A stretch of 64,000 bases of DNA from an uncultured Acidobacteriota bacterium (GTDB taxonomy: Bacteria > Acidobacteriota > Vicinamibacteria > Vicinamibacterales > UBA2999). Of this stretch, positions 3,332 through 57,861 are shown piece by piece. Made by a program: the position numbers and the translations under genes. The stretch lies in NCBI GenBank assembly GCA_963841905.1, contig CAWJEM010000023.1, positions 984-64,983 of the forward strand. Direction: 5' to 3'. The notes below the pieces were generated by a model that saw only the letters and a program-made list of their open reading frames with translations, did no database searches and was not told the DNA's origin. Positions within the stretch are counted from its first letter, which is position 1. Each line of letters opens with the position of its first letter.

Positions 3332-3362
3332 TGCATAAAAGGGGACTGTCCCCGTTTATGCA
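3332..3362. promoter_or_regulatory. 31-bp palindrome TGCATAAAAGGGGAC-T-GTCCCCGTTTATGCA in a divergent intergenic region
   Basis: 15-nt arms with one mismatch, core GGGGACTGTCCCC at 3341-3353. It lies between the divergent starts 3304(-) and 3415(+). The same core recurs at 11154, 11305, 16820 and 16971. Confidence 0.5.
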
Positions 3363-8926: not shown

Positions 8927-9943
8927 TTATTGAGTGGTTGTCCGCGAGACCTTCGGGGCCACGAGTATGCGCTTGGGCCCTGTTCCTCGGGCGAACTGAA
9001 TGTTCGTCAGGACCTTGCGCGTGTTGATGTCGATCGCCGCCACCGCGTGCGAGTCCCAGAGGCTCACAAAGAGGACTTGACCGTCCGGTCTGACCGTGAA
9101 CCAGTGCGGAAACTTGCCGACGCGAATCTGTGCGATCTCCTTGAAATCACTAGTTCGCACGATTCGCACGAGATCGTTGACGCAATCTGTCACCCAGAGC
9201 TCGGTCTCGTTCTTCACGAGCTGAAGCGCGTGCGTATAGGTGTTGAGGTAGGGCTTCGGCACTCCGTCAGGGAGCTGTGCGAGCTCCACGCGTTTCGTCA
9301 CCGCACGCTTTTCTGGATCGACGACCACAAAGCCAATCAGGTGAGAGAGTGCGGTGTAGATGATCTTACCGTCGTGAGTGGGCTCGAGCGGGCGTACGCC
9401 ATCGCTCGTCGGGATTTGATGGAGTAGCGACTGCGTCGCTGGATCAAACACGGCGACCGCGTTGCCGTACTGTGCGCCGACATAGATGCGCGAGCCGTCT
9501 GCCGACGTGTAAGCGTCGTGCGGTCCTTCGTTCATCGGGATTTTCTTCACGAGCTTCAACGGATCGAGCTGGATGATTGCAACCGAGTTCTCTCCGCGCA
9601 TCGGCATGTAGGCGAAGCGCCCATCTTTGGTCAGCGTCATCTGGTTGGGATCTTTGCCCAATGGGATCTGGGCCTCGACCTTTCCCGAGCGGGCATCGAT
9701 CACCTGGAAGTTCCCGGTGCGGTCGCTCCCGATGTAAACCTTCGATCCATCAGAGGACGTCGCCAGGCCGTGCGGGCGCGGGTCGGTCGTGATGCGCCGG
9801 ACTTCTTTGAACGTGTAGGCGTCGACTTCGACCAGTTGATCCGAGTCGCCGAGCGTGACCCAGAGGGTGACGCCGCGCTCCTGCGCACGGATCGCCAGAC
9901 AACATGCAACAACAATCGCCGCAGCGCCGAGGCACCTTCGCAT
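8927..9943 (-). CDS. Secreted YVTN/cytochrome-D1-like beta-propeller protein
   Basis: Signal peptide MRRCLGAAAIVVACCLAIRAQ from ATG 9943. That start is conserved in copy 2, whereas GTG 9970 is not. Repeated blades: SSDGSKVYIGS, TKDGRFAYMPM, SADGSRIYVGA, THDGKIIYTAL, RPDGQVLFVSL. Confidence 0.75.
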   Translation of the reverse strand: MRRCLGAAAIVVACCLAIRAQERGVTLWVTLGDSDQLVEVDAYTFKEVRRITTDPRPHGLATSSDGSKVYIGSDRTGNFQVIDARSGKVEAQIPLGKDPNQMTLTKDGRFAYMPMRGENSVAIIQLDPLKLVKKIPMNEGPHDAYTSADGSRIYVGAQYGNAVAVFDPATQSLLHQIPTSDGVRPLEPTHDGKIIYTALSHLIGFVVVDPEKRAVTKRVELAQLPDGVPKPYLNTYTHALQLVKNETELWVTDCVNDLVRIVRTSDFKEIAQIRVGKFPHWFTVRPDGQVLFVSLWDSHAVAAIDINTRKVLTNIQFARGTGPKRILVAPKVSRTTTQ

Positions 9944-9970
9944 GGCGCTCGATCTTACGCCAGGAGCCAC

Positions 9971-11131
9971 TCACCCCTTGGGTTTGGGGTCCTTCGGCTT
10001 CAAATCGAGCTTCGGATAGTACGGCTCGTCGAGCTTCTGGAATTTCTCCAGCCATTTTGGTCCGGCTTCACCGGGCGTGAAGCTCCAGTCCTGCCGGTGA
10101 TAGTTCCAGTCGGTGGGATTCAGTTGTTGGGCACGCGCGAAGTACTTCTTCGCTCGCTCGACATCGCCTGCCTGCTGGAACCAAGCGGCCAGTGCAAAGC
10201 TCGCGTCGGCTTCCATCTCGGCCGGTGTGCGTGGCTTGACCCGTCGAGCAAACTCGTCGTCTGACAGCGCATAAATGCTTCGGTCTCCCCTGGCAATCCA
10301 GTCGCGGATGGCTGCCACGTATTCTTCACCTTCGGTCACCAACGGCTTGCCCGCGAAGGTGCTCGTTCGACTGGTCGTCCAGGCGGGCTCCCCAGGTCGT
10401 ACGACGCGTCCTCGCTCGTCGATCCAGACCCCGGTGGGGACATTCGTGAATTGAAAGGCCGAACTCACGGCGTGGTTGGCGTCGATGAGCGTCGTGAAGG
10501 TCGCTTTGGCGGCCTCGTACCATTTTCCCGCTGCCGCTTCGCCGCCCGTATCCTGCGCCGCCGCGATGATCTCGAAGTTCGCGTTCTTGAGCTCGTCGTA
10601 CAGTGTCTGCCAGCCTGGCAGATCAAGTCGGCATCCTCACCAGGAAGCCCACGTGACCAAGAGCACTTTCTTGCCGCGGAATTGCGACAGGCGAACGAGA
10701 CGGCCGGTGCGATCGGGCACCGAGACCTCGGGCGCGATGCGCGACTCGAGGAAGGAGCCACGGACGACGGGCATCTCGCCGAAGCTCCACACCCGGGCGG
10801 CGGGATCCGCAACCACGCTCTGCCCTGCTCGCCGCGCGAACGCCGTGAGGTCGAACTGGTCGCCTCGGATCATGGTCGACGGGACCGGGATGCAAACATC
10901 AGCGCGGCAGGCACCCTCCGGCTTCAGTTCGAATTCATTGATCCGGGGGAGATCAGTCTTCAGGATCCACAGCGAGTCAGGAACGCCCCCTGGGTCTGGC
11001 CTGACATCACTCAAGGTGACGGCGCGACCGTCGTACAACACGGCAGCCCCGGGCGTCGGCTGACCGTCACGTAGCGCAGATGGCACCAGCGCCGCAGCTC
11101 CAACCGCTTTCAAGAACTCTCGTCGCTCCAC
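9971..11131 (-). CDS. Tat-exported thioredoxin-fold (TlpA/ResA-like) selenoprotein, W-A-S-W-U-G-C motif; in-frame TGA at 10637-10639 read as Sec
   Basis: ORFs 10637..11218 and 9971..10468 share a frame and are separated only by the TGA. Read-through gives ..KKVLLVTWASW-U-GCRLDLPGWQTLYDELKNANFEIIAAAQD..NVPTGVWIDERGRVV. The likely GTG start is at 11131 (M-ERREFLKAVGAAAL twin-arginine signal, GAGG upstream); the maximal ORF starts at 11218. Confidence 0.8.
10607..10621 (-). promoter_or_regulatory. Candidate SECIS-like hairpin CUGCCAGGCUGGCAG
   Basis: Perfect 5-6 bp stem starting 15 nt 3' of the in-frame UGA, with a G/U-containing apical loop. It is identical in the second copy at 16273-16287. 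Confidence 0.5.
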
Positions 11132-11153
11132 AGCCGACCTCGCCTCTGTTAAA

Positions 11154-11166
11154 GGGGACTGTCCCC
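11154..11166. promoter_or_regulatory. GGGGACTGTCCCC palindrome upstream of the selenoprotein gene
   Basis: On the minus strand it reads TAAAAT-GGGGACAGTCCCC, 22 nt upstream of GTG 11131. Confidence 0.45.
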
Positions 11167-11304
11167 ATTTTATTGTTAACCAACTCGTCCCAGAAGATGA
11201 AGTCTCGACAAGCTTCACGCATTATCTGCGAGGTCTGTCGACGCCGCGAGCGCACAATCCGCCGCGAATCGGCAGATTCGTCGATAACTGGTTAACCATA
11301 TAAA

Positions 11305-11317
11305 GGGGACAGTCCCC
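11305..11317. promoter_or_regulatory. GGGGACAGTCCCC palindrome upstream of the YcaQ-like gene
   Basis: Preceded by TATAAA (11299-11304) and ends 5 nt before ATG 11323. Confidence 0.45.
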
Positions 11318-11322
11318 GGACA

Positions 11323-12444
11323 ATGACCACACTCAACGACATGCGGCGACTTGCGGTTCGTCGCAGTCTTTTCGACCCGACCACACTCGACCGCGCCCTC
11401 GATGCGCTGGGGTTCGTACAAGCCGATCCCATCCGTGCGCCAGCCCGGGCCCAGGATCTGACGCTTCGCCCACGTGTCATCGGCTATCGCGCCGGCGATC
11501 TCGAGCGGCTCTACGCGAACCTGCCAATTGAAGAGGACGTCTTCATCAACTACGGGTTCGTGACTCGAACGCTGCAGGCCCTGATGCACCCGCGAACCGG
11601 CGCGTCGCTGCTGCCAACCGCAAGAAACAAGCGCGCACAGTCAGTGCTGGCGTTTGTCCGAGAGCGCGGCGCGGTGCACCCGCGCGACGTGGACGCGCAG
11701 TTCGCCCATGGCACAGTCACGAACTATTGGGGCGGCTCCTCGAATGCGACGACGCGCTTGCTTGAGGCGATGCACTACAAGGGATTGCTCCGCGTCGTTC
11801 GTCGTGAAGGCGGTATCCGGATCTATGGCGCGCACGCGCATGCCCCCGGGCCGGTCGGCATCAACGCTCGTCGCCATCACATCGACGCCATTGTCGACAT
11901 CGTGGTTCGCAAGTACGCGCCACTACCCGCCGCGAGCCTGTCCAATGTTGTGGCACGCCTTCGCTACGCCGTCCCGCAGTGGCGGAGTGAACTGCCATCG
12001 GCGTTGCAGCGGGCGAAGCAGCGACTGTTGCACGCTCGAATCGACGGCGTGGATTGGTATTGGCCTGCCGGCGACGAACCACGACGCGACGCAGTACCTG
12101 AGGTCGTTCGCTTGCTGGCACCATTCGATCCGGTCGTGTGGGATCGGCGCCGCTTCGAGATGTTGTGGGGCTGGGCCTACCGTTTCGAAGCCTACACGCC
12201 AGTTCCAAAGCGTAAGCTTGGCTACTACGCCCTGCCGATGCTCTGGCGCGATCGGGTGGTGGGATGGGGGAATGTCGCGATGGCTGCCGACGGGCTCAAA
12301 GCGGCGTTCGGCTATGTCGCGGGACACGCCCCGCGCAGCCGCGCGTTCGCACTCCAACTGGGGGCAGAAGTGGAGCGGCTGCGAGCCTTCCTGGAGAGCG
12401 ACCCGAATCCTCCAAGCGATGGCCTAAACCCGTGGTCCAGTTGA
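11323..12444 (+). CDS. YcaQ/AlkZ-like winged-helix protein (DUF1006; putative DNA crosslink-repair glycosylase)
   Basis: 373 aa. Contains FVQADPI (a Q-x-D type motif as recalled for YcaQ) and YTPVPKRKLGYYALPMLWRDRVVG, typical of this family. Confidence 0.75.
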   Translation: MTTLNDMRRLAVRRSLFDPTTLDRALDALGFVQADPIRAPARAQDLTLRPRVIGYRAGDLERLYANLPIEEDVFINYGFVTRTLQALMHPRTGASLLPTARNKRAQSVLAFVRERGAVHPRDVDAQFAHGTVTNYWGGSSNATTRLLEAMHYKGLLRVVRREGGIRIYGAHAHAPGPVGINARRHHIDAIVDIVVRKYAPLPAASLSNVVARLRYAVPQWRSELPSALQRAKQRLLHARIDGVDWYWPAGDEPRRDAVPEVVRLLAPFDPVVWDRRRFEMLWGWAYRFEAYTPVPKRKLGYYALPMLWRDRVVGWGNVAMAADGLKAAFGYVAGHAPRSRAFALQLGAEVERLRAFLESDPNPPSDGLNPWSS

Positions 12445-12463
12445 ATTGAGACGAAACGCAACA

Positions 12464-12512
12464 CCAAGCACACGAAGGATTTCCTTGGATTTCTTCGTGG
12501 CCTTCGTGTTGG
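12464..12512. terminator. Hairpin between convergent genes built on CACGAAG / CTTCGTG units
   Basis: CCAAGCACACGAAGG (12464-12478) pairs with CCTTCGTGTTGG (12501-12512), and an additional CTTCGTG lies in the loop. It sits between the stops at 12444 (+) and 12554 (-). Confidence 0.45.
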
Positions 12513-12553
12513 ATTTTCTCGTTTCTCGAGTGAGTCTCAGGATAGGCCGCTGA

Positions 12554-14971
12554 CTACTCTGTCCGTAGCGCTTGCACCGGATCGATGCGCGCGGCACGCA
12601 GGGCCGGTACCAACGCGGCCACCGCTCCAACGCCAACGATTGCAAGGCCGCTGATAACGTAGGTCACGAGATCGAGCGACGGAACACCGAAGAGAAGACT
12701 CTGAAGCGATCGACCAGCGACCGCAGCGCCCGCTAACCCGAGAGCGACCCCCAGCAGGACGATCTTCAACGCACCACCCACCACCAACCGGAAGGTCCCC
12801 GGGGCGTCGGCGCCGAGCGCCATTCGGACTCCGATCTCAGCGGTTCGCCGAGCGACGGAGTAGGTCACAACGCCGTAGACACCAACCGCAGCCAGCAGTG
12901 CAGCGCACAAGGCAAGCGACACGAGGAGCGTCATGTTGAACCGTGGCTGGGCGATGGATCCCGACACGAGATCTTCGATCTTCGAAACCTTGACGATCGG
13001 CAGCGCCGGATCGAGCGCCGCCAGCTCGCGCTTGACACCCTGCACGATCGCATCGGCCCCTTCCGTCGAGGCGATGACAATCTGCATCTCGGTGAGCGGA
13101 AACTGAAAATACGGCACGAACACTTCGGCCTGCGCATTGCCCTGAAGCCCATCGTGCTTGATGTCAGCAACCACGCCAACGATGTGCAGATCGCCGGCCA
13201 TCGGCATCTTCACGCGCTGCCCGATGGGATCGACGGCACTGAAGTACCGCTTGACGACCGACTCATTGACGATGGCGACCTTCGGACCGTTTTCTCGTCC
13301 ATCGAACCGATCGAATGCTCGGCCTCTCGTCAGCCGGATCCCCATCGTCTGGAAGTAATCGCCAACCACCGCGCGATAGCGGGCACGGGGACGTTCGGTC
13401 GGCGATGTGGTCTCGAGCCCCTCGATCGTGAACGGCAGGTCGAACTGAACGCCGAGCGGACTCATCGGCAGAGCAGAGACCGCCGCGGCACGCCCGACAC
13501 CGTGGACGTCCTTGACTCGTTCGACGAGGGTGTCGAATAACTGGCGCTTCGAAGACGGATCGGGATAGCGGCTCGCCGGCAAGGCGATATGGGCCGCAAT
13601 CACGTTCGATGTGCGGTAGCCCGGGTCCACCGATGTCAAGTGGGCGAAACTTCGAATCAGCAGACCCGCACTGACGAGCAACATGAGCGCGAGCGCAACC
13701 TCGGCTGCGACCATCATGTTGGAAAAGCGTCGAGTGGCGCGACTGGCAGTCGCTCCACGGCTGGCGTCCTGCAGGATCTCGACGAGGTTGGGTCGCATGG
13801 CACGCCATGCCGGGACAAGACCGACGAGCAGCCCCGAAACGATGGTTGTGATGGCCGTGAACCCAAGGACCGGCAGATCGAGACCGATGCTGTAGGCGCG
13901 CGGTACGTTTGGCGGAATCAATGGACGTAACAGCACCGTCCCCCACCACGCCAGCAGCAGCCCGACAACCCCGCCAGCGAGCGTGAGGATGCTGCTCTCG
14001 ACCAGCGATCGCCGAACCAGTGCCCAACGGCTAGCGCCGAATGCGGCGCACAAGGCGAACCCCTTGGCGGCGCTCGAGGATCGCGCGAGCAAGAGGTTCG
14101 CGATGTTGGCGCAGGCGATCACGAGGACCAGCACGACCGCGCCAAACAGCACCCACAGTGTTTCGCCGATCCGGCCAACCACTTGCTCGTGCGCGGGAAC
14201 GAGCGTGACGCCCCACCCGGTGTTCGATTCAGGATTCTCGCGCGCGATCGCCGCGCTGATCGACGCCATCTCTTGTCGCGCCTGCTCGATCGTCACGCCG
14301 GGCGCCAATCGGCCCACTGCCTGATAGAGGCGATGCGGCCGTGAAGCCAGCGCGCCCAGGTTGAGCGTGAGCGGTGACCACAGCTCTACGTCGGGATCGC
14401 TCGCCGGAAATTGAAAGTCGCGAGGCATGACACCCACGATCGTGTGCGAGGCATCGTCGAGTGCCATGACTCTGCCGAGAACGTTCGGATCTCCTCCGAA
14501 GCGGCGGACCCACGCGCCGTGACTCAACACGACCTGCCGCGAGTCGGTCCCGGGATTTTCCTCGGCGTCCGTGAACGTCCGACCCAGGAGCGGGGGCACG
14601 CTCAGCGCTCGAAACAGCACGGGCGATACGTCGACGGTGATCAGTCGTTCGGCCTCGCCAGCGCCGGTCAGCGTGTAGCCGCGGTATCGAAAGATCCCAA
14701 TGCCTGTGAAGGTGCGGGTCCGTGCGCGCCAATCCAGATGGGTCGCAGCCGCAACCTGTGAACGGTCGATTCCCTGCGATGCGTTGGTTTCCCAGATGCC
14801 GACCAGCTGCTCAGGCTCGCCATAGGCCAGCGGCCGGAGCAAGACACCATTGAGGACACTGAAGATCGTGGAATTGACACCAATCGCCAGGCCCAGCGTC
14901 AACACGATGACGGCGGCAAATCCAGGATTCGTGGAGAGGAACCGCATCGCCTCGCGAATGTCGTTTTTCAC
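12554..14971 (-). CDS. ADOP-family duplicated FtsX/MacB-like ABC transporter permease (copy 1)
   Basis: 805 aa with a GTG start. The N-terminus ..FLSTNPGFAAVIVLTLGLAIGVNSTIFSVLNGVLLRPL.. and two FtsX-type modules are typical of acidobacterial duplicated orphan permeases. Confidence 0.9.
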   Translation of the reverse strand: MKNDIREAMRFLSTNPGFAAVIVLTLGLAIGVNSTIFSVLNGVLLRPLAYGEPEQLVGIWETNASQGIDRSQVAAATHLDWRARTRTFTGIGIFRYRGYTLTGAGEAERLITVDVSPVLFRALSVPPLLGRTFTDAEENPGTDSRQVVLSHGAWVRRFGGDPNVLGRVMALDDASHTIVGVMPRDFQFPASDPDVELWSPLTLNLGALASRPHRLYQAVGRLAPGVTIEQARQEMASISAAIARENPESNTGWGVTLVPAHEQVVGRIGETLWVLFGAVVLVLVIACANIANLLLARSSSAAKGFALCAAFGASRWALVRRSLVESSILTLAGGVVGLLLAWWGTVLLRPLIPPNVPRAYSIGLDLPVLGFTAITTIVSGLLVGLVPAWRAMRPNLVEILQDASRGATASRATRRFSNMMVAAEVALALMLLVSAGLLIRSFAHLTSVDPGYRTSNVIAAHIALPASRYPDPSSKRQLFDTLVERVKDVHGVGRAAAVSALPMSPLGVQFDLPFTIEGLETTSPTERPRARYRAVVGDYFQTMGIRLTRGRAFDRFDGRENGPKVAIVNESVVKRYFSAVDPIGQRVKMPMAGDLHIVGVVADIKHDGLQGNAQAEVFVPYFQFPLTEMQIVIASTEGADAIVQGVKRELAALDPALPIVKVSKIEDLVSGSIAQPRFNMTLLVSLALCAALLAAVGVYGVVTYSVARRTAEIGVRMALGADAPGTFRLVVGGALKIVLLGVALGLAGAAVAGRSLQSLLFGVPSLDLVTYVISGLAIVGVGAVAALVPALRAARIDPVQALRTE

Positions 14972-14980
14972 GGCGCTCTT

Positions 14981-15613
14981 TTATACCTCGACGACCACAA
15001 AGCCGATCAGGTGAGAGAGTGCGGTGTAGATGATCTTGCCGTCGTGAGTGGGCTCGAGCGGGCGCACGCCATCGCTCGTCGGGATTTGATGGAGTAGCGA
15101 CTGCGTCGCTGGATCAAACACGGCGACCGCATTGCTGTACTGTGCGCCGACATAGATGCGCGATCCGTCTGCCGACGTGTAAGCGTCGTGCGGTCCTTCG
15201 TTCATCGGGATTTTCTTCACGAGCTTCAACGGATCGAGCTGGATGATTGCAACCGAGTTCTCTCCGCGCATCGGCATGTACGCGAAGCGCCCATCTTTGG
15301 TCAGCGTCATCTGGTTGGGATCTTTGCCCAATGGGATCTGGGCCTCGACCTTTCCCGAGCGGGCGTCGATCACCTGGAAGTTCCCGGTGCGGTCGCTCCC
15401 GATGTAAACCTTCGATCCATCAGAGGACGCCGCCAGGCCGTGCGGGCGCGGGTCGGTCGTGATGCGCCGAACTTCTTTGAACGTGTAGGCGTCGACTTCG
15501 ACCAGTTGATCCGAGTCGCCGAGCGTGACCCAGAGGGTGACGCCGCGCTCCTGCGCACGGATCGCCAGACAACATGCAACAACAATCGCCGCAGCGCCGA
15601 GGCACCTTCGCAT
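14981..15613 (-). pseudogene. 3'-truncated copy of the beta-propeller gene (cut by the duplication junction)
   Basis: Same signal peptide and the first ~205 residues as 8927..9943, then ..SHLIGFVVV-EV-stop where the full copy continues DPEKRAVTKRV. ATG at 15613. Confidence 0.8.
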
Positions 15614-15636
15614 GGCGGTCGATCTTACGCCACCAC

Positions 15637-16797
15637 TCACCCCTTGGGTTTGGGATCCTTCGGCTTCAAATCGAGCTTCGGATAGTACGGCTCGTCGAGC
15701 TTCTGGAATTTCTCCAGCCATTTTGGTCCGGCTTCACCGGGCGTGAAGCTCCAGTCCTGCCGGTGGTAGTTCCAGTCGGTGGGATTCAGTTGTTGGGCAC
15801 GCGCGAAGTACTTCTTCGCTCGCTCGACATCGCCTGCCTGCTGGAACCAAGCGGCCAGCGCAAAGCTCGCGTCGGCTTCCATCTCGGCCGGTGTGCGCGG
15901 CTTGACCCGTCGAGCAAACTCGTCGTCTGACAGCGCATAAATGCTTTGGTCTCCCCTGGCAACCCAGTCGCGGATGGCTGCCACGTATTCTTCACCTTCA
16001 GTCACTAACGGCTTGCCCGCGAAGGTGCTCGTTCGACTGGTCGTCCATGCGGGCTCCCCGGGTCGTACGACGCGTCCTCGCTCGTCGATCCAGACGCCGG
16101 TGGGGACATTCGTGAATTGAAAGGCCGAGCTCACGGCGTGGTTGGCGTCGATGATGGTCGTGAAGGTCGCTTTGGCGGCGTCGTACCATTTTCCTGCTGC
16201 CGCTTCGCCGCCCGTATCCTGCGCCGCCGCGATGATCTCGAAGTTGGCGTTCTTGAGCTCGTCGTACAGTGTCTGCCAGCCTGGCAGATCAAGTCGGCAT
16301 CCTCACCAGGAGGCCCACGTGACTAAGAGCACTTTCTTGCCGCGGAATTGCGACAGGCGAACGAGACGGCCGGTGCGATCGGGCACCGAGACCTCGGGCG
16401 CGATGCGCGACTCGAGGAAGGAGCCACGGACGACGGGCATCTCGCCGAAGCTCCACACCCGGGCGGCGGGATCCGCAACCACGCTCTGCCCTGCTCGCTG
16501 CGCGAACGCCGTGAGGTCGAACTGGTCGCCTCGGATCATGGTCGACGGGACCGGAATGCAAACATCAGCGCGGCAGGCACCCTCGGGCTTCAGTTCGAAT
16601 TCATTGATCCGGGGGAGATCATTCTTCAGGATCCACAGCGAGTCAGGAACGCCCCCGGGGTCCGGCCGGACGTCACTCAAGGTGACGGCGCGACCGTCGT
16701 ACAACACGGTAGCCGCGGGCGTCGGCTGACCCTGACGTAGCGCAGATGGCACCAACGCCGCAGCGCCAACCGCTTTCAAGAACTCTCGTCGCTCCAC
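15637..16797 (-). CDS. Second copy of the thioredoxin-fold selenoprotein; in-frame TGA at 16303-16305
   Basis: ORFs 16303..16884 and 15637..16134 are in the same frame. The W-A-S-W-TGA-G-C context is retained with synonymous changes on the flank (TTG>TTA, GCT>GCC). GTG start at 16797. Confidence 0.8.
16273..16287 (-). promoter_or_regulatory. Candidate SECIS-like hairpin (copy 2)
   Basis: Identical CUGCCAGGCUGGCAG, 15 nt downstream of the UGA at 16303-16305. Confidence 0.5.
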
Positions 16798-16819
16798 GGC
16801 CGACCTCGCCTCTGTTAAA

Positions 16820-16832
16820 GGGGACTGTCCCC
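16820..16832. promoter_or_regulatory. GGGGACTGTCCCC palindrome (copy 2)
   Basis: Same context as 11154-11166. Confidence 0.45.
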
Positions 16833-16970
16833 ATTTTATTGTTAACCAACTCGTCCCAGAAGATGAAGTCTCGACAAGCTTCACGCATTATCTGCGAGGT
16901 CTGTCGACGCCGCGTGCGCACAATCCGCCGCGAATCTGCCGATTCCTCGACAACTGGTTAACCATATAAA

Positions 16971-16983
16971 GGGGACAGTCCCC
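16971..16983. promoter_or_regulatory. GGGGACAGTCCCC palindrome (copy 2)
   Basis: Preceded by TATAAA and ends 5 nt before ATG 16989. Confidence 0.45.
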
Positions 16984-16988
16984 GGATA

Positions 16989-18092
16989 ATGACCACCCTC
17001 AAAGACATGCGGCGACTTGCGATTCGTCGCAGTCTTTTCGACCCGACCACACTCGACCGCGCCCTCGATGCGCTGGGGTTCGTACAAGCCGATCCCATCC
17101 GTGCGCCAGCCCGGGCCCAGGATCTGACGCTTCGCCCACGTGTCACCGGCTATCGCGCCGGCGATCTCGAGCGGCTCTACGCGAACCTGCCAATTGAAGA
17201 AGACGTCTTCATCAACTACGGGTTTGTGACTCGAACGCTGCAGGCCCTGATGCACCCGCGAACCGGCGCGTCGCTGCTGCCAACCGCAAGAAACAAGCGC
17301 GCACAATCAGTGCTGGCGTTTGTCCGAGAGCGCGGCGCGGTGCACCCGCGCGAGGTGGACGCGCAGTTCGCCCATGGCACCGTCACCAACTATTGGGGCG
17401 GCTCCTCGAACGCGACGACGCACTTGCTTGATGCGATGCACTACAAGGGATTGCTCCGCGTCGTTCGTCGTGAAGGCGGTATCCGCATCTATGGCGCGCA
17501 CGAGCATGTCCCCGGGCCGGTCGGCGTCAACGCTCGACGCCATCACATCGACGCCATCGTCGACATCGTCGTTCGCAAGTACGCGCCACTACCCGCCGCG
17601 AGCCTGTCCTATGTTGTGGCACGCCTTCGCTACGCCGTCCCGCAGTGGCGGAGTGAACTGCCATCGGCGTTGCAGCGGGCGAAGCAGCGACTTTCGCACG
17701 CTCGAATCGACGGCCTGGATTGGTATTGGCCTTCCGGCGACGAACCACGACACGACTCCGTACCTGAGGTCGTTCGCTTGCTGGCACCATTCGATCCGGT
17801 CGTGTGGGATAGGCGCCGCTTCGAGATGTTGTGGGGCTGGGCCTACCGTTTCGAAGCCTACACGCCAGTTCCAAAGCGTAAGCTCGGCTACTACGCCCTG
17901 CCGATGCTCTGGCGCGATCGTGTGGTGGGATGGGGGAATGTCGCGATAACTGCTGACGGGCTCAAAGCGGCGTTCGGCTATGTCGCGGGACACGCCCCGC
18001 GCAGCCGCGCGTTCGCACTCCAACTGGAGGCGGAAGTGGAGCGGCTGCGAGCCTTCCTGGAGAGGACCCGGATCCTCCAAGCGCTGGCCTAA
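16989..18092 (+). CDS. YcaQ/AlkZ-like winged-helix protein (copy 2)
   Basis: 367 aa, about 95% identical to copy 1 by eye. A 1-nt difference near 18065 changes the last ~12 residues and the stop position. Confidence 0.75.
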   Translation: MTTLKDMRRLAIRRSLFDPTTLDRALDALGFVQADPIRAPARAQDLTLRPRVTGYRAGDLERLYANLPIEEDVFINYGFVTRTLQALMHPRTGASLLPTARNKRAQSVLAFVRERGAVHPREVDAQFAHGTVTNYWGGSSNATTHLLDAMHYKGLLRVVRREGGIRIYGAHEHVPGPVGVNARRHHIDAIVDIVVRKYAPLPAASLSYVVARLRYAVPQWRSELPSALQRAKQRLSHARIDGLDWYWPSGDEPRHDSVPEVVRLLAPFDPVVWDRRRFEMLWGWAYRFEAYTPVPKRKLGYYALPMLWRDRVVGWGNVAITADGLKAAFGYVAGHAPRSRAFALQLEAEVERLRAFLERTRILQALA

Positions 18093-18119
18093 ACCCGTGG
18101 TCCAGTTGAATTGAGACGA

Positions 18120-18205
18120 AACGCAACACGAAGCGCACGAAGCACACGAAGGATTTCCCTGGATTTCTTCGTGGCCTTCGTGGCCTTCATGGCCTTCGTG
18201 TTGGA
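18120..18205. terminator. Expanded CACGAAG / CCTTCGTG repeat hairpin between convergent genes
   Basis: Three CACGAAG units (18127-18152) face four CTTCGTG-like units (18166-18204). The copy-1 equivalent has fewer units. Confidence 0.45.
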
Positions 18206-18244
18206 TTTTCCCCTACTCCAGTAAGTCTCAGGGTAGGTCGCTGA

Positions 18245-20662
18245 CTACTCTGTCCGTAGCGCTTGCACCGGATCGATGCGCGCGGCACGCAGCGCCGGTA
18301 CCAACGCGGCCACCGCTCCAACGCCAACGATTGCAAGGCCGCTGATGACGTAGGTCACGAGATCGAGCGACGGAACACCGAAGAGAAGACTCTGAAGCGA
18401 TCGGCCAGCGACCGCAGCGCCCGCTAACCCGAGAGCGACCCCCAGCAGGACGATCTTCAACGCACCACCCACCACCAACCGGAAGGTCCCCGGGGCATCG
18501 GCACCGAGCGCCATTCGGACTCCAATTTCAGCGGTTCGCCGAGCGACAGAGTAGGTCACAACGCCGTACACACCGACCGCCGCCAGCAGTGCAGCGCACA
18601 GGGCAAGCGACACGAGGAGCGTCATGTTGAACCGTGGCTGGGCGATGGATCCCGACACGAGATCTTCGATCTTCGAAACCTTGACGATCGGCAGCGCCGG
18701 ATCGAGCGCCGCCAGCTCGCGCTTGACACCCTGCACGATCGCATCGGCCCCTTCCGTCGAGGCGATGACAATCTGCATCTCGGTGAGCGGAAACTGAAAA
18801 TACGGCACGAACACTTCGGCCTGCGCATTGCCCTGAAGCCCATCGTGCTTGATGTCAGCAACGACGCCAACGATGTGCAGATCGCCGGCCATAGGCATCT
18901 TCACGCGCTGCCCGATGGGATCGACGGCACTGAAGTACCGCTTGACGACCGACTCATTGACGATGGCGACCTTCGGACCGTTTTCTCGTCCATCGAACCG
19001 ATCGAATGCGCGGCCTCTCGTCAGCCGGATCCCCATCGTCTGGAAGTAATCGCCAACCACCGCGCGATAGCGGGCACGGGGACGTTCGGTCGGCGATGTG
19101 GTCTCGAGCCCCTCGATCGTGAACGGCAGGTCGAACTGAACGCCGAGCGGACTCATCGGCAGAGCAGAGACCGCCGCGGCGCGCCCGACACCGTGGACGT
19201 CTTTGACTCGTTCGACGAGGGTGTCGAACAACTGGCGCTTCGAAGACGGATCGGGATAGCGGCTCGCCGGCAACGCGATATGGGCCGCAATCACGTTCGA
19301 TGTGCGGTAGCCCGGGTCAACCGATGTCAAGCGTGCGAAACTTCGAATCAGCAGACCCGCACTGACGAGCAACATGAGCGCGAGCGCAACTTCGGCGGCG
19401 ACCATCATGTTGGAAAAGCGTCGAGTGGCGCGACTGGCGGTCGCTCCACGGCTGGCGTCCTGCAGGATCTCGACGAGGTTGGGTCGCATGGCACGCCATG
19501 CCGGGACAAGACCGACAAGAAGTCCCGATGCGATGGTTGTGATGGCCGTGAACCCGAGCACCGGCAGATCGAGACCGATGCTGTAGGCGCGCGGCACGTT
19601 TGGCGGAATCAATGGACGTAACAGCACCGTCCCCCACCACGCCAGCAGCAGCCCGACAACCCCGCCGGCGAGCGTGAGGATGCTGCTCTCGACCAGCGAT
19701 CGCCGAACCAGTGCCCAACGGCCAGCGCCGAATGCGGCGCACAAGGCGAACCCCTTGGCGGCGCTCGAGGATCGCGCGAGCAAAAGGTTCGCGATGTTGG
19801 CGCAGGCGATCACGAGGACCAGCACGACCGCGCCAAACAGCACCCACAGTGTTTCGCCGATCCGGCCAACCACTTGCTCGTGCGCGGGAACGAGCGTGAC
19901 GCCCCACCCGGCGTTCGATTCAGGATTCTCGCGCGCGATCGCCGCGCTGATCGACGTCATCTCTTGTCGCGCCTGCTCGATCGTCACGCCGGGCGCCAAT
20001 CGGCCCACTGCCTGATAGAGGCGATGCGGCCGTGAAGCCAGCGCCCCCAGGTTGAGTGTGAGGGGTGACCACAACTCAACGTCGGGATCGCTCGCCGGAA
20101 ACTGAAAGTCGCGAGGCATGACGCCCACGATCGTGTGCGAGGCGTCGTCGAGTGTCATGACTCTGCCGAGAACGTTCGGATCTCCTCCGAAGCGGCGGAC
20201 CCACGCGCCGTGGCTCAACACGACCTGACGCGAGTCGGTCCCGGGATTTTCCTCGGCGTCCGTGAACGTCCGGCCCAGAAGTGGGGGCACGCTCAGCGCT
20301 CGAAACAGCACGGGCGACACGTCGACGGTGATCAGTCGTTCGGCCTCGCCAGCGCCGGTCAGCGTGTAGCCGCGGTATCGAAAGATTCCAATGCTTGTGA
20401 AGGTGCGGGTCCGGACGCGCCAATCCAGATGGGTCGCAGCCGCAACCTGTGAACGGTCGATTCCCTGCGATGCGTTGGTTTCCCAGATGCCGACCAGCTG
20501 CTCAGGCTCGCCATAGGCCAGCGGCCGGAGCAGGACGCCATTCAGGACGCTGAAGATCGTGGAATTGACGCCAATCGCCAGGCCCAGCGTCAACACGATG
20601 ACGGCTGCAAATCCAGGATTCGTGGAGAGGAACCGCATCGCCTCGCGAATGTCGTTTTTCAC
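18245..20662 (-). CDS. ADOP-family duplicated FtsX/MacB-like ABC transporter permease (copy 2)
   Basis: 805 aa. It differs from copy 1 at 8 residues, counted from the provided translations. Confidence 0.9.
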   Translation of the reverse strand: MKNDIREAMRFLSTNPGFAAVIVLTLGLAIGVNSTIFSVLNGVLLRPLAYGEPEQLVGIWETNASQGIDRSQVAAATHLDWRVRTRTFTSIGIFRYRGYTLTGAGEAERLITVDVSPVLFRALSVPPLLGRTFTDAEENPGTDSRQVVLSHGAWVRRFGGDPNVLGRVMTLDDASHTIVGVMPRDFQFPASDPDVELWSPLTLNLGALASRPHRLYQAVGRLAPGVTIEQARQEMTSISAAIARENPESNAGWGVTLVPAHEQVVGRIGETLWVLFGAVVLVLVIACANIANLLLARSSSAAKGFALCAAFGAGRWALVRRSLVESSILTLAGGVVGLLLAWWGTVLLRPLIPPNVPRAYSIGLDLPVLGFTAITTIASGLLVGLVPAWRAMRPNLVEILQDASRGATASRATRRFSNMMVAAEVALALMLLVSAGLLIRSFARLTSVDPGYRTSNVIAAHIALPASRYPDPSSKRQLFDTLVERVKDVHGVGRAAAVSALPMSPLGVQFDLPFTIEGLETTSPTERPRARYRAVVGDYFQTMGIRLTRGRAFDRFDGRENGPKVAIVNESVVKRYFSAVDPIGQRVKMPMAGDLHIVGVVADIKHDGLQGNAQAEVFVPYFQFPLTEMQIVIASTEGADAIVQGVKRELAALDPALPIVKVSKIEDLVSGSIAQPRFNMTLLVSLALCAALLAAVGVYGVVTYSVARRTAEIGVRMALGADAPGTFRLVVGGALKIVLLGVALGLAGAAVAGRSLQSLLFGVPSLDLVTYVISGLAIVGVGAVAALVPALRAARIDPVQALRTE

Positions 20663-20948
20663 GGCGCTCTTTTATACCTCGACGAGGTGCATACGGGGCT
20701 GTTCGATCAATCCGATGAAAAGCGACTGGCGCTGTGGAACCACTGGAACGACAAGCTTCCACAGAACCCCTTCGTCCTCCGACAGCTTCGAGCGCAACCG
20801 GCTTCAACTCAATAGGTTACGGTCTGGGCAGTTCTACGCTTCCTACACGATCTGCACAGCGCTTGAAATTTTTTTTCGTGAAGTGTCGTAATTGGCCGTC
20901 CGAAGTCGATCTACCAGTTAGCGCCTCGATACGCACTGGAGGTTCGAC

Positions 20949-22490
20949 ATGTGGTCAACGACACGTTTGCCGTCGTCTGAATGGGCAGTCGCAGTCCGGG
21001 TTTCGGTTCTCTGCGTTGGTCTGTACGTGACGATCGGCACCGCAATCGCTTCAGGACAGCAGCCCGCCGCAGCTGCCACAACCTCGGACCACTTCGGGCG
21101 AATGTTCAACAATCTGCCACCGTTCGCGCCACAAAACCCCAGGGTCACGGAGGCGCTGATCGAGCTCGGGAGGCCCGGTGGCCTCATGGACGCCAACGAC
21201 GACCTGGACGCCGGCGCCTTCGAGCTGATCGTAAACCCGTTGCTCAACCTCCAAAATCCCAACAACGACGCTCATACGGCCGGCGTCACGTTCATGGGTC
21301 AGTTCCTCGACCACGACATGACGTTCGACACGACGTCTCGACTTGGCCAGCCCGCCAACCCGCGGACGTCGCGCAACTCGAGACGTCCGTACTTCGACCT
21401 GGACTCCGTCTACGGTGATGGTCCGGTCGGTTCGCCGCTGCTTTACGAGGCCTCGGATCGCGCGAAGCTGAAGGTTGAATCAAACGGGCCGTTCGAAGAT
21501 CTGCCGCGGGATGTCAACGGCACGGCCGTGATCGCCGATCCGAGGAACGACGAGAACCTTGTCATCAGTGGTCTTCAAGCGGCCTTTCTCCTCTTCCACA
21601 ATCGCGTCGTCGATCTCATTCGCGATGAGCATCCTGCGTGGGAAAGCGAGGACGTCTTCCGGGCGGCGCGGCGGCTTACGACCTGGCATTACCAGTGGAT
21701 GATTCTTCACGAGTTCGTGCCCGCTTTCACCGGCGCAGGAATGGTGAACGACGTGCTCGCGAACGGGTGCCGCTTCTACCAGCCGGAGAACGGCCACGCC
21801 TTCATTCCGGTCGAGTTCCAGATGGCCTACCGCTTTGGGCACAGCATGGTGAGGCCGTCCTATCGGGCGAACTTTACGGGCAGCGCCGGTGGCGCATTCT
21901 TTGCGATGCTCTTCGAAAGTCAAAATGGCACTGGTGAACCCAGCGATCTACGGGGTGGCTTCCGAAGTCCGCGGCGGTTCATCGGTTGGCAAACGTTCTT
22001 CCGATTCCCTGGCTTCGAAAGCGACGTGCGGCCCAACAAGCGTCTCGACACCAAGCTCTCGACGCCGCTTTTCGACTTACCACTCGGGGCCATCGCGTCA
22101 GGAGCACCTCCCACATCGCTGGCTGCGCGCAACCTTCTCCGCCACCTCACCTGGAAGCTGCCTTCCGGACAGATGATTGCCGAGGCCATGGGCGCTCCGG
22201 TGTTGACGGCAGCTCAACTTGCTGATCTGCAAACGATCTATCCACCGTTTGTCACTTCGACGCCGCTCTGGTTCTACGTGCTGAGAGAAGCCGACATCCT
22301 CGGTAATGGCGCTCACCTGGGACCGGTCGGCGGCCGCATCGTCGCTGAAGTCTTCATCGGATTGCTGCAGGCGGACCCGAACTCGTTCCTGAATCAGGAA
22401 CCACTGTTCACCCCCACGCTGGGTGAATCACCGGGCTCATTTGCCATGATTGATTTCCTGCGAGTTGCGGGCGTCTCGCCCAAGCGCTGA
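20949..22490 (+). CDS. Animal-type heme peroxidase family protein
   Basis: Motifs FMGQFLDHDMTF (distal His region), ADPRNDENLVISGLQAAFLLFHNRVV and FQMAYRFGHSMV (proximal His region). Confidence 0.8.
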   Translation: MWSTTRLPSSEWAVAVRVSVLCVGLYVTIGTAIASGQQPAAAATTSDHFGRMFNNLPPFAPQNPRVTEALIELGRPGGLMDANDDLDAGAFELIVNPLLNLQNPNNDAHTAGVTFMGQFLDHDMTFDTTSRLGQPANPRTSRNSRRPYFDLDSVYGDGPVGSPLLYEASDRAKLKVESNGPFEDLPRDVNGTAVIADPRNDENLVISGLQAAFLLFHNRVVDLIRDEHPAWESEDVFRAARRLTTWHYQWMILHEFVPAFTGAGMVNDVLANGCRFYQPENGHAFIPVEFQMAYRFGHSMVRPSYRANFTGSAGGAFFAMLFESQNGTGEPSDLRGGFRSPRRFIGWQTFFRFPGFESDVRPNKRLDTKLSTPLFDLPLGAIASGAPPTSLAARNLLRHLTWKLPSGQMIAEAMGAPVLTAAQLADLQTIYPPFVTSTPLWFYVLREADILGNGAHLGPVGGRIVAEVFIGLLQADPNSFLNQEPLFTPTLGESPGSFAMIDFLRVAGVSPKR

Positions 22491-31543: not shown

Positions 31544-32479
31544 GTGAAAACTTTCGCCCTGCTCAGCCTGCTGTTCCCAGCGGTTTTCGCCATTTCGGCG
31601 GGGACAGGGTTAAACCTTGTCCCCGCACAGGTTCAGCCGGACGCGCCCAACGAGTGCGCCGACTGCGCCGAATGGAATCGTCCGCTCGCACCATTCAAGG
31701 TCTTCGGCAACACCTACTACGTCGGGACCGATGGACTGTCGGCGTTGCTCATCAGTGATGAGGCGGGGCTGATCCTCCTCGACGGTGGACTGCCACAGTC
31801 GGCGCCACTCATCGATCAGAACATTCGCGCTCTCGGATTTCGCACCGAGAACGTCCGCTTCATCGGCAACTCTCATGCGCACTACGACCACGCCGGTGGG
31901 ATCGCAGCGTTGCAGCGTGTGAGCAAGGCCATGGTGGCGGCGAGCCCGGCAGGCGCACGCGCGCTCGAACGCGGCGGGCCGACAGACGACGACCCGCAGT
32001 TTGCGTTTGGCAAGTCGCAGTTGTTCCCCGCCGTGAAGGGTGTTCGCGTCATCGCCGAGGGAGAAACGTTGCGCGTCGGCAAAGCGTCGGTGACGGCTCA
32101 TTTCACTCCCGGTCATACGCCGGGCGCCACGACCTGGAGCTGGCAGTCATGCGAGGGCACGCGCTGCCTCAACATCGTGTATGCCGACAGCATCAGCGCC
32201 GTCTCGGCGCCAAACTACCGCTTCACGGCTGGCACGCCGCCGACGGCCGCCGACCGGTTTCGGGAGAGCATCGCCAAGGTCGAGCAGCTGCCCTGCGACA
32301 TTCTCTTTTCGACGCATCCGGCAGCATCGGACATGAAAGGGAAGCTGGCACGCCGACAGACGTCGCCGTCGCCAGACCCGTTTGTCGATAGCGGAAGCTG
32401 CCGCGCGTATGCCGCTGCGGCACGGAAGCGGCTCGAGGGCCGCATCGCCGAAGAAAAGACCAGCGCGCCTAAAGGTTGA
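31544..32479 (+). CDS. Subclass B3 metallo-beta-lactamase-like hydrolase
   Basis: Signal peptide (V/M)[18 protein letters not shown]. Zinc motifs [11 protein letters not shown] (HxHxDH) and HFTPGHTPG. An alternative TTG start lies at 31514. Confidence 0.8.
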
Positions 32480-32483
32480 GTCC

Positions 32484-34007
32484 ATGTCCACGGCACCGGA
32501 TTTCACACGGGCGAGCCTGTTAGACGCACAGCGGTTCGCTCAGTTTCAGAGCTACACGCTGTCCACGTCGTACGACGAGATGTTCGACAGCGACGGTGGG
32601 TCTCGACCACAGTACGACGCGCTGTTCGACCGCCTTCAGGTCATCGACACGCAGGAGATGCGGCAGCGGCAGGCAGCGGCGGATCTGGCGTTCCTCAATC
32701 AGGGAATCACATTCACGGTCTATGGCCAGAACGAAGGTACCGAGCGTATCTTCCCGTACGACCTGATTCCGCGCATCATCACCGCCCCGGAGTGGCAGGT
32801 GCTCGAGCGCGGGCTGATGCAACGCATCACCGCCCTCAATCTGTTCCTGAAAGACATCTATTTCGACGCGCGAATCCTTGCGGATCAAGTCGTTCCTCGC
32901 TCGCTGATTTACAGCTGCAAACACTTCCGCCGCGAGATGCGCGGCGTGCGCGTGCCGAACGACGTCTACGTCTCGGTGGCGGGCACAGACCTCGTGCGAC
33001 TGCCGGATGGCACGTTTGCAGTGCTCGAGGACAACCTGCGCGTGCCGAGCGGTGTCAGCTACATGCTCACCAATCGGCAGGTCATCAAGCGCATCTTTCC
33101 GCTGCTGTTTCGAAGCTACGACGTCCGCCCGGTGGATCACTACGGCCAGATGCTGCTCGCCACGCTGCGCGCTCTCGCTCCCCCGCATCGTCCGGATCCG
33201 ACCATCGTCCTCTTGACACCGGGGATGTTCAACTCGGCGTACTTCGAACATACGTTCCTCGCGCGCCAGATGGGCATTGCGCTGGTTGAGGGCCGCGATC
33301 TTTTCGTCCACGACAACGTCGTCTATATGCGGACGACGGCCGGACCGCAGCGAGTGGACGTGATCTACCGGCGGGTGGACGATGACTTCATCGATCCGCT
33401 GGCGTTTCGCGAAGACTCGACGTTGGGCGTGCCTGGTCTGTTCAACGCGTATCGAGCCGGCACGGTTGCCTTGACCAATGCGATCGGAACCGGAGTGGCC
33501 GACGACAAGGCGGTCTATGCCTACGTCCCAGCCATCATCAAGTACTACCTGAGTGAAGAGCCGATTCTCGCGAACGTTCAGACGTGGGGACTGTCGAACG
33601 AGACCGATCGCAGCTACGTCCTCGAGCGTCTCGACCAGCTCGTGGTCAAGGCCGTCGGCGAATCGGGCGGTTACGGGATGCTGATCGGGCCGCACAGCAC
33701 CGCGGCTGAGCGGGAGGAGTTCCGCCGGCGGATCACCGACGATCCTCGCAACTACATCGCGCAGCCCACGCTGGCGCTGTCCGCGGCGCCGTGCTTCATT
33801 GATGGCGTCATCGAGCCCCGCCACGTCGATCTGCGCCCCTATATCCTTTCCGGTGACAAGGTCGTGATCGTTCCAGGCGGTTTGACCAGGGTCGCGTTGC
33901 GGAAAGGCTCGCTGGTCGTAAACTCGTCGCAGGGTGGCGGCAGCAAGGACACGTGGGTGTTGAACGAACAATTTCCATCGCGCCGATCGATCGCCGGTCG
34001 CGGCTGA
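32484..34007 (+). CDS. Circularly permuted type-2 ATP-grasp protein
   Basis: 507 aa starting [13 protein letters not shown].., 4 nt after the MBL stop. N-terminal [15 protein letters not shown] and C-terminal [10 protein letters not shown] are typical of this family. Confidence 0.8.
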
Positions 34008-34015
34008 GGTCTGAG

Positions 34016-34972
34016 ATGCTCTCGAGAGTGGCGGACAGCCTGTACTGGATGGCGCGATATCTCGAACGCGCCGAGCACATCGCGCGGGTCGTCAACGTCA
34101 ATCTCAACGTCACGCTCGATCGGGCGCCTGCCGACGCGGCGCGGCATTGGGGAAGGCTGCTGGTGAGCCTGCCCGACCCGCCAGCGTGGGCGGCACCGGC
34201 GGCGGTCGATCCGCTCGAGCCGGCAACCGTCGACCTGGCCAATCGCGAGTCGATCAGCGCGTGCGTTTCGGCAGCGCGTGAAAACGCACGGCAGGTGCGT
34301 GAAGAGATCAGCTCCGAGATGTGGGAGGAGATCAATCAGCTCTATCTGGCCGTTCAGCGGAAGCAAAACGTCGATTCAGCCTGGACGGCCGGGACGCACG
34401 AATTTCTCACGTCGACGATCGGTGCGATCCATCTCTTTCAAGGCGTCACCGACGCCACGATGACGCATAGTGAGGGCTGGCACTTCATGGAACTGGGCCG
34501 GTATCTCGAACGGGCGAGCGCGACGGCGGCGCTGCTCGACGTTCAGTTTCGCGAATGCACGTGGCAGGCCGATCAATTGGCCGGTGTCAGCGAGTACATT
34601 GAGTGGGTTGGGTTGTTGAAGTCGTGCAGTGCCTTCGAGGCTTACTGCCGGCATTACACCGCTGACGTTCGGCCTTCGAGGATCGCCGAATTCCTCGTGC
34701 TCGATCCCAACTTTCCGCGATCGATCCGATTCGCCGCCGGGCGCATTCACGCGTCCCTCCGGTGCCTCGGCCCTTCCGTGACTGGAACGCGCGCGCAAGC
34801 CGAACGCGTGGCTGGGCGCCTGCTGGCATCGCTCGACTACGCGCACATCGAGGAAGTCATTAGCGATTTGCCCACCTACCTCCAGGGCATCATTCATCAG
34901 GCGGCTGACATCAATCGCGCCGTCCATCAGCAGTACGTCGCTTATCCCATCGACAGCGGGCTGACTGTCTGA
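34016..34972 (+). CDS. Alpha-E domain-containing protein
   Basis: MLSRVADSLYWMARYLERAEHIARV is the characteristic N-terminus. It immediately follows the ATP-grasp gene. Confidence 0.8.
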   Translation: MLSRVADSLYWMARYLERAEHIARVVNVNLNVTLDRAPADAARHWGRLLVSLPDPPAWAAPAAVDPLEPATVDLANRESISACVSAARENARQVREEISSEMWEEINQLYLAVQRKQNVDSAWTAGTHEFLTSTIGAIHLFQGVTDATMTHSEGWHFMELGRYLERASATAALLDVQFRECTWQADQLAGVSEYIEWVGLLKSCSAFEAYCRHYTADVRPSRIAEFLVLDPNFPRSIRFAAGRIHASLRCLGPSVTGTRAQAERVAGRLLASLDYAHIEEVISDLPTYLQGIIHQAADINRAVHQQYVAYPIDSGLTV

Positions 34973-34985
34973 TCCGTACACACCG

Positions 34986-36026: not shown

Positions 36027-36100
36027 TGGGAGGTCGTTCAACGGTAGGACACCGCGCTCTGGACGCGGTTATCGGGGTTCGAATCCCTGCCTCCCAGCCA
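36027..36100 (+). tRNA. tRNA-Gln (anticodon CUG)
   Basis: Hand-folded cloverleaf. Acceptor TGGGAGG/CCTCCCA (U1-A72), D stem GTTC/GGAC, anticodon stem CCGCG/CGCGG with loop CTCTGGA. T arm CGGGG-TTCGAAT-CCCTG, discriminator G, encoded CCA. Length 74 nt. Confidence 0.9.
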
Positions 36101-57859: not shown

Positions 57860-57861
57860 TG

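Follow-up and report, generated by a model that had tools for sequence, protein, structure and literature searches.

We analysed a 64,000-nt stretch of DNA (hereafter the window) from an uncultured Acidobacteriota bacterium (contig CAWJEM010000023.1, positions 984 to 64,983), concentrating on a minus-strand gene at 9971..11131 that is interrupted by an in-frame TGA codon and on its second copy, at 15637..16797 on the same strand. Taken together, the data make it very probable that this is a tandem-duplicated bacterial selenoprotein gene whose UGA codon 165 is decoded as selenocysteine (Sec, U). On the sequence evidence, we take the TGA at 10637-10639 to be a genuine Sec codon in a predicted exported thioredoxin-fold protein.

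The gene and its tandem copy

Mechanical calling of open reading frames (ORFs) reports two separate minus-strand ORFs at the first copy, 10637..11218 and 9971..10468. An earlier prediction made from the letters of the window alone (the original prediction) held that only a TGA divides them, and both the sequence and the read-through peptide quoted there are confirmed: the ORFs share one frame, and the TGA at 10637-10639 is the sole stop between them. At this site the minus strand reads ...GTC ACG TGG GCT TCC TGG TGA GGA TGC CGA and continues CTT GAT CTG CCA GGC TGG CAG.... The translation around the TGA (10639..10637) is T-W-A-S-W-[TGA]-G-C-R, and the longer read-through peptide is ...GKKVLLVTWASW-[UGA]-GCRLDLPGWQTLYDELK....

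Read in this way, the gene comprises 386 codons, from a GTG start at 11131 to a terminal TGA at 9971-9973, and the in-frame UGA specifies residue U165 of a W-A-S-W-U-G-C motif. A purine-rich ribosome-binding site, AGAGGCGAGG (11138..11147, minus strand), lies upstream of this GTG and is identical in copy 2. Its GAGG sits 7-10 nt before the start codon, after which the protein opens with M-E-R-R-E-F-L-K. GTG 11131 is the likely true start. It is preferred over the 415-aa reading from GTG 11218 because homologues begin just before the RR motif. The original estimate of about 390-415 aa is therefore replaced by 386 aa, its upper end being unsupported by homologue N-termini. Beyond the terminal TGA the frame continues into a beta-propeller ORF, whose likely start is ATG 9943 (MRRCLGAAAIVVACCLA...). 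There is no sign of read-through fusion to the propeller, since the selenoprotein homologues end at the same place.

The second copy lies 5,666 bp from the first and is 98% identical to it at the nucleotide level, with its Sec codon at 16303-16305. Self-BLAST shows that both copies are part of a head-to-tail tandem duplication spanning 9318..20685 (unit 9318-14994 versus 14988-20685, 96.6% identity). Each 5.7-kb unit includes genes for a MacB-like permease, an AlkZ-like glycosylase (on the other strand) and the selenoprotein, as well as the 5' part of a YncE-like beta-propeller gene. The junction of the duplication cuts short the copy-2 propeller gene (about 14981-15721). The unit occurs as a single copy with different flanks in a related contig (L044, CAVTGK010000057.1; 97% match) from a metagenome-assembled genome (MAG). 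Between copy 1 and copy 2 of the selenoprotein gene there are 23 synonymous and nine non-synonymous codon differences, while the TGA and the sequence after it are kept in both. This pattern indicates purifying selection on both copies.

Evidence for decoding of UGA as selenocysteine

To find relatives, we scanned one genome per species, which yielded 80 loci, and added more by a metagenome scan seeded with the cysteine (Cys) forms. The 80 loci belong mostly to Acidobacteriota (Vicinamibacterales, Bryobacterales and Terriglobia), the other groups being Hydrogenedentota, Planctomycetota, Nitrospirales, Rhodothermaeota and Pseudomonadales. TGA occupies the Sec codon in 79 of them, the remaining one (L039) having TGT. 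Once the metagenomic loci are included, TGA is found in about 157 of 162 motif-bearing sequences; despite its Cys-form seeds, the metagenome scan still gave mainly TGA forms. TGT or TGC was seen at L039, L081, L104, L106, L150 and L161-163. Among relatives in soil Acidobacteriota, Sec forms exceed Cys forms about ten to one.

Protein databases give a complementary picture, with 765 representative clusters related to the protein at E <= 0.001. The original prediction placed the TGA where the first redox Cys would be expected and named an alignment with homologues as a check. Such an alignment bears it out: in 106 full-length homologues a Cys aligns with the TGA within WASWCxC (WASWCGC in 86, CQC in 10, CAC in four, CKC in four, and others). 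These Cys forms are single proteins of 370-400 aa. The expectation that ordinary gene callers would split the gene has also proved right, as among the 150 database entries most closely related to the N-terminal part, 103 stop at ...WASW and 10 are Cys forms. Two homologues call for comment. P0001 (L164) is shown with W at the Sec position, but the actual codon is TGA, translated as Trp by the Joint Genome Institute (JGI) pipeline. P0003 (L165:2001-3155) has AGA (Arg) at the Sec codon next to a perfect hairpin of the type described below; either TGA changed to AGA recently, or the sequence is in error.

The region downstream of the UGA is under strong constraint. In six pairwise comparisons of the 100 codons that follow the UGA, the ratio of non-synonymous to synonymous substitution rates (dN/dS) lies at 0.03-0.08 and does not exceed the value for the 100 codons before it. 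Nor is there a ribosome-binding site or a conserved start downstream of the TGA. Ordinary stops in the window are most often TGA (15 TGA, 12 TAG and 4 TAA among 31 confident genes), and this gene, too, terminates with TGA; therefore, the genetic code is not reassigned. A window scan for further in-frame TGAs flanked by coding-like sequence gave the two copies and only trivial cases besides. Frameshifts inside the gene were noticed in two relatives: L044 has a 1-nt insertion just past the hairpin (L044:6490-6540) and L053 a frame break about 100 codons past the UGA. Both occur in long-read MAG contigs and are probably assembly errors rather than pseudogenes.

A further line of evidence is a hairpin of the selenocysteine insertion sequence (SECIS) type, UCUGCCA-GGC-UGGCAGA (10606..10622, minus strand; 16272-16288 in copy 2). 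According to folding it starts 14 nt after the UGA and has 7 bp and a 3-nt loop with G as its first base; it is contained in the codons for D-L-P-G-W-Q-T. Bacterial SECIS elements have been described as stem-loops immediately 3' of the UGA with a small, G-containing apical loop (PMC1088965), and the hairpin at 10606-10622 has this form. We examined its covariation in an alignment of 146 distinct Sec-form sequences. Standard pairing is observed in 97.2% of cells, whereas controls with the partner shifted by 1-3 columns give 26-59%. At the outer end of the stem, 86 sequences have U-A and 53 have C-G; at the next pair inwards, C-G occurs in 112 and U-A in 26. The first loop base is G in 145 of 145. 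Double-sided changes number 80 against 27.6 expected, and none of 500 shuffles reached the observed covariation score. Compensation can be followed at the level of codons: Leu CUG/UUG changes together with Gln CAG/CAA, and Asp GAU/GAC together with the first base of the codon following Gln. Since these double changes occur at synonymous or otherwise unconstrained sites, the protein sequence does not explain the covariation. The hairpin is lost in the Cys form L039. In the Cys forms L161-L163, which have an identical DLPGWQ peptide, five of the seven pairs are kept, and the outer pair and the closing A-U are missing. No Rfam family matched near the selenoprotein gene. A further candidate element, a mini-hairpin enclosing the UGA itself (GAGGC...GCCUC) in many Bryobacterales, shows 71.5% pairing and zero double-sided changes and is thus unsupported.

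These data can be set against two other explanations of the TGA. It is very improbable that faulty sequencing or assembly turned a TGC or TGT into this TGA, or that UGA is read as Trp, Cys or Gly without selenium. Such readings could draw on the probable indels in L044 and L053, the AGA of one relative and the W rendered by the JGI pipeline. However, the duplicated copies differ at 3.4% of positions and yet both carry the TGA, making a single-base sequencing error very unlikely, and the same codon recurs in more than 150 independent assemblies of differing technologies. Moreover, a covarying hairpin is not needed for near-cognate read-through, and TGA serves as a normal stop elsewhere in the window. 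The idea that the TGA is a true stop, separating two end-to-end genes or a truncated pseudogene from a downstream remnant, agrees with the two mechanically called ORFs, the many N- and C-terminal halves kept separately in databases and the lack of visible Sec machinery in the window, but is effectively refuted by a thioredoxin fold split at the TGA, a frame kept across it in about 157 loci, the low downstream dN/dS with no new start, the single-chain Cys homologues and the retention of the arrangement in both diverged copies. The claim of the original prediction that the in-frame UGA encodes Sec is accordingly upheld by its prevalence among relatives, by the downstream constraint and by the covarying hairpin.

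Domain architecture and possible activity

The predicted protein begins with a twin-arginine (Tat) signal peptide region, M-E-R-R-E-F-L-K-A-V-G-A-A-A-L-V-P-S-A-L... (11057..11131, minus strand), recognised by its motif only. Tat signals are defined by (S/T)-R-R-x-F-L-K and a hydrophobic stretch after it. RRxFL is shared by 69 related Sec-form loci and by the nearest Cys forms, more distant relatives having signal peptides of the general secretory (Sec) type, so that a signal peptide of one type or the other is found throughout the family. The RRxFLK motif, as the original prediction had noted, is thus common to close relatives and suggests Tat export of the selenoprotein. Three further regions follow on the minus strand. 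The first is an N-terminal alpha/beta domain (10757..11050; approximately residues 28-125) with an invariant G-x-C-x4-C (C75, C80). The second is a TlpA/ResA-like thioredoxin-fold domain (10322..10744; approximately residues 130-270) with the U165-G-C167 site and an N-V-P cis-proline loop, and the third a C-terminal helical, TPR-like domain (9974..10321) with an invariant W-N-x-x-R-Q-x-W.

Pfam assigns AhpC-TSA (1.7e-15) and Redoxin (6.5e-13) to the protein. GSHPx (PF00255) matches at 23.3 bits against a 27-bit cutoff (profile positions 4-58, residues 136-190), and a TPR_2 match to the tail (21.1 bits) is likewise below cutoff. The best PDB sequence matches are ResA, TlpA and DsbE, with E from 3e-13 to 1e-8. 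Here HMMER opens a one-residue gap in the active site, aligning WASWCG-C with WATWCPPC and WASWCGPC. The site is therefore U-x-C, or C-x-C in Cys-form members; it lacks one residue of CxxC and does not conform to a CxxC definition.

Structures were predicted for a Cys homologue, P0002, which is 61-63% identical, and for the N-terminal 164 aa of the window protein itself. The AlphaFold model of P0002 (mean predicted local distance difference test score, pLDDT, 89) has three parts: an N-terminal alpha/beta domain (~30-125), a thioredoxin domain extended by a beta-meander (~140-272) and a tail made of helices (273-370). The fold spans the TGA and is completed only downstream of it. In a Foldseek comparison of this model with the PDB, only the thioredoxin domain finds matches (ResA, DsbE, TlpA, SdbA, Etrx2 and StoA), with TM-scores normalised to the target of 0.72-0.82 (about 0.75-0.8 for ResA and DsbE). 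The proposed likeness to TlpA/ResA thus holds for the thioredoxin fold across the TGA and fails at the active site, with its missing residue. Similarly, the tail described as TPR-like is indeed helical in the model, its Pfam TPR_2 score being sub-threshold. The N-terminal alpha/beta domain is modelled with confidence (pLDDT about 95), but for the 164-aa model (pLDDT 85) the best PDB Foldseek match has E = 1.7, and Pfam gives no matches. An nDsbD-like immunoglobulin redox domain, considered for this CxxxxC domain, is rejected on the same results.

Invariant columns taken from 52 homologues are found in all three domains. In the N-terminal domain they are G73, C75 and C80, and in the tail W342-N-x-x-R-Q-x-W349. 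The thioredoxin domain contributes W-A-S-W-(U/C)-x-C, D170, W174, D194, D217, H220 and N-V-P, as well as W236, E239, G241, R245 and E248.

Among the functional options, an extracytoplasmic thiol-disulfide oxidoreductase is tentatively the most likely, and we infer its direction of electron flow. In the mechanism that we propose, UGA codon 165 would be decoded as Sec during translation, with the hairpin positioned as a bacterial SECIS that would recruit SelB together with Sec-tRNA(Sec). The 386-aa product would then be exported via its putative twin-arginine signal. Outside the cytoplasm, the exposed U165 selenolate would attack a substrate disulfide or sulfenic acid, Cys167 would resolve the mixed selenenylsulfide into an intramolecular Se-S bond, and a CcdA/DsbD-type membrane electron shuttle would re-reduce that bond.

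A peroxidase is possible, if on balance unlikely. In this scheme Sec165 would reduce H2O2 or organic hydroperoxides, passing through a selenenic acid as in glutathione peroxidase (GPx) and peroxiredoxin (Prx), and Cys167 would resolve it to a selenenylsulfide. AhpC-TSA is the best Pfam match and GSHPx a weak one. Glutathione peroxidases carry the active-site string V-A-S-x-U-G, which W-A-S-W-U-G resembles, and there are weak PDB sequence matches to GPx6 and GPx. JGI labels homologues 'peroxiredoxin', Sec is typical of peroxidatic residues, and the Global Ocean Sampling (GOS) paper files UGC proteins as 'Prx-like' (PMC2398784). Nevertheless, the Prx signature PxxxTxxC is absent, as L-V-T-W-A-S-W-U has no Pro at -7 and has Ala at -3. 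Besides its sub-cutoff GSHPx score, the protein has a thioredoxin-type N-V-P cis-proline loop in place of the GPx Trp-Asn, and the top sequence and fold matches are all TlpA/ResA/DsbE reductases.

We regard as doubtful, and slightly more so, the proposal that the short U-x-C ring is oxidising and that the protein, instead of serving as a reductant, isomerises or oxidises disulfides outside the cytoplasm, or binds soft metals or metalloids. It is consistent with the fact that every member is one residue short of CxxC (CGC, CQC, CAC, CKC or UGC) and that the fold has His220, Asp217 and Asp194 as invariant residues. An engineered CGC thioredoxin and CGC peptides, attributed to Woycechowsky and Raines in 2003, reportedly have potentials like those of protein disulfide isomerase and show isomerase activity. 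Thioredoxin-fold Sco proteins bind copper via CxxxC plus His. On the other hand, metal-handling or Dsb genes are not conserved nearby.

Finally, it is conceivable but improbable that the three-domain U-G-C protein is an extracytoplasmic selenoenzyme with a chemistry of its own, beyond a Sec version of TlpA. The selenenylsulfide closed at its shortened site would be an 11-membered, strained ring, and the enzyme might act in the periplasm as a peroxidase or isomerase, or else handle chalcogens or metals. If such a distinctive enzyme existed, it would imply substantial and systematically mis-annotated selenium use in soils.

A number of observations weigh against a Sec-containing oxidoreductase as the product of this gene. 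Five of the seven hairpin pairs are dictated by the L-P-G-W-Q codons, so that part of the hairpin would exist anyway; the same pre-formed pairs in the DLPGWQ codons may make it easy to switch between Cys and Sec. As a whole, the 76-nt region has a folding energy no better than that of shuffles (z = 0.12). None of selA, selB, selD and tRNA-Sec was found within the 64-kb window by ARAGORN and Rfam (only a tRNA-Gln) or by Pfam scans of 31 window proteins (no SelA, SelB or SelD domains). With NCBIfam model NF041054.1 (WAxxUGC_long), copy 1 scores 296.3 bits (E = 3e-88) and copy 2 297.4, with C substituted for U, both marginally under the curated 300-bit equivalog cutoff. U-x-C is not the canonical TlpA/ResA site, and the reductase mechanism is derived from the fold. 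Across 163 loci there is no conserved CcdA, Sco or cytochrome maturation neighbour that would point to a substrate, and our searches found neither biochemical work nor selenium evidence for any family member.

Genomic context

Directly after the selenoprotein stop lies a YncE-like beta-propeller gene with a signal peptide (8927..9970, minus strand; Pfam YNCE 1.4e-14), which is probably co-transcribed with the selenoprotein gene. The adjacency of propeller and selenoprotein genes and the AlkZ and MacB neighbours are confined to L001 and L044, the closest relatives. When the window neighbours (the YncE-like propeller, AlkZ-like, MacB-like, FkbM and haem peroxidase proteins) were compared by tblastn with the 163 loci, they were present only in the two closest relatives. 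All-versus-all clustering of the flanking ORFs from these loci found nothing common to more than 11 loci except antisense artefacts. No partner is conserved; the gene stands alone, and its context offers no functional clue.

A palindrome, GGGGAC(N)GTCCCC, is present in the window in five exact copies (3341-3353, 11154-11166, 11305-11317, 16820-16832 and 16971-16983) against 0.28 expected. All are intergenic, have a T-rich run after them and lie 6-23 nt upstream of gene starts. Among the genes downstream are the two selenoprotein copies and the two AlkZ-like genes. The palindrome may serve as an operator or belong to the promoter region and is lineage-specific, as L001 and L044 are the only relatives that have it.

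Several other features of the window were noted. Just past the unit of copy 2, a 513-aa ORF (20949-22490, plus strand) matches animal haem peroxidase (PF03098, 1.5e-24), a family uncommon in bacteria and unlinked to the selenoprotein in other loci. An operon-like run at 32382-35948 (plus strand) contains the known conserved trio of circularly permuted ATP-grasp, Alpha-E domain and transglutaminase-like genes and is followed by the tRNA-Gln (36027-36100). Two adjacent glutaminase genes (55679-57859 and 57841-58908, plus strand) are 79% identical in DNA over about 930 bp, and a DcaP-like outer-membrane porin domain appears to be joined to the first as a fusion. About 660 bp recur as a dispersed repeat (51299-51962 and 61335-61992, 91% identity) and carry a pair of ORFs, each of about 252-255 aa, of which the scanned one, at 61335-62102, has no Pfam match.

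Comparison with known families

The window protein is a duplicated member of a known, biochemically uncharacterised selenoprotein family. The original prediction gave the family name 'ResA-like WAxxUGC motif protein', which proved to be exactly that of NF041054 ('ResA-like WAxxUGC motif-containing protein'), the score alone falling just under the cutoff. The model and the window protein share the W-A-x-x-U-G-C motif, the length class and the succession of N-terminal domain, thioredoxin domain and tail. The match spans profile positions 11-323 of 354, leaving the last ~30 positions unmatched. Relatives score 244-318 with this model: some acidobacterial members also fall below 300, and others, together with Cys forms, reach up to 318. 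What the present analysis adds to the original prediction is the second copy, the SECIS covariation with most of the stem pre-formed by the DLPGWQ codons, the residue missing from the active site relative to CxxC, the N-terminal domain without a PDB match, the absence of conserved neighbours and the census of Sec forms, which dominate among relatives and are systematically truncated in databases.

A full-text literature search for 'WAxxUGC' found no paper describing NF041054. A predicted UGC-motif, TlpA/Prx-like selenoprotein family is nevertheless already listed in reviews (PMC13188914). The GOS paper counts 46 Sec and 855 Cys sequences as 'Prx-like (UGC-containing)' and finds them commoner in non-marine samples (PMC2398784), and the Sargasso Sea paper records one UXC Prx-like sequence (PMC1088965). 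Like the window protein, this literature family combines a UGC redox motif with a thioredoxin fold of the TlpA/Prx-like kind, and its non-marine abundance fits the soil Acidobacteria found here. It appears to be the family of the window protein or a sister family. The papers give no mechanism, structure or analysis of SECIS covariation. With the family and its UGC motif already catalogued, the present finding will not surprise a selenoprotein specialist. However, because callers cut the gene at the UGA and NF041054 narrowly misses this clade, the selenoproteome of abundant soil bacteria is under-counted. A widespread, apparently exported family that combines a natural CxC/UxC thioredoxin fold with an uncharacterised N-terminal domain is also a reasonable target for biochemistry.

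Two peroxidase families were tried as a classification and rejected. For peroxiredoxin (AhpC/TSA, PF00578) the domain match is significant, though K-V-L-L-V-T-W-A-S-W before U165 lacks P-x-x-x-T/S-x-x-C. For glutathione peroxidase (PF00255) the score is sub-cutoff and, by inspection, an N-V-P-T-G loop holds the Trp-Asn position.

The best sequence and fold matches are TlpA, ResA and CcmG (DsbE) (cd02966; PDB 1jfu, 1st9 and 3gl3). Common to these proteins and the window protein are W-A-(S/T)-W before the first redox residue, the cis-proline loop and predicted or known export. The window protein differs in having U-x-C or C-x-C for CxxC and Sec for Cys, an extra N-terminal domain of ~100 aa without a PDB fold match and a helical tail of ~110 aa, and in being unlinked to cytochrome c or CuA maturation genes. 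A parallel in its presumed route of synthesis and export is E. coli formate dehydrogenase-N FdnG, a Tat-exported selenoprotein with an in-frame UGA and a downstream SECIS. FdnG is unrelated in fold and cofactor, and within the family of the window protein the Tat signal is clade-specific.

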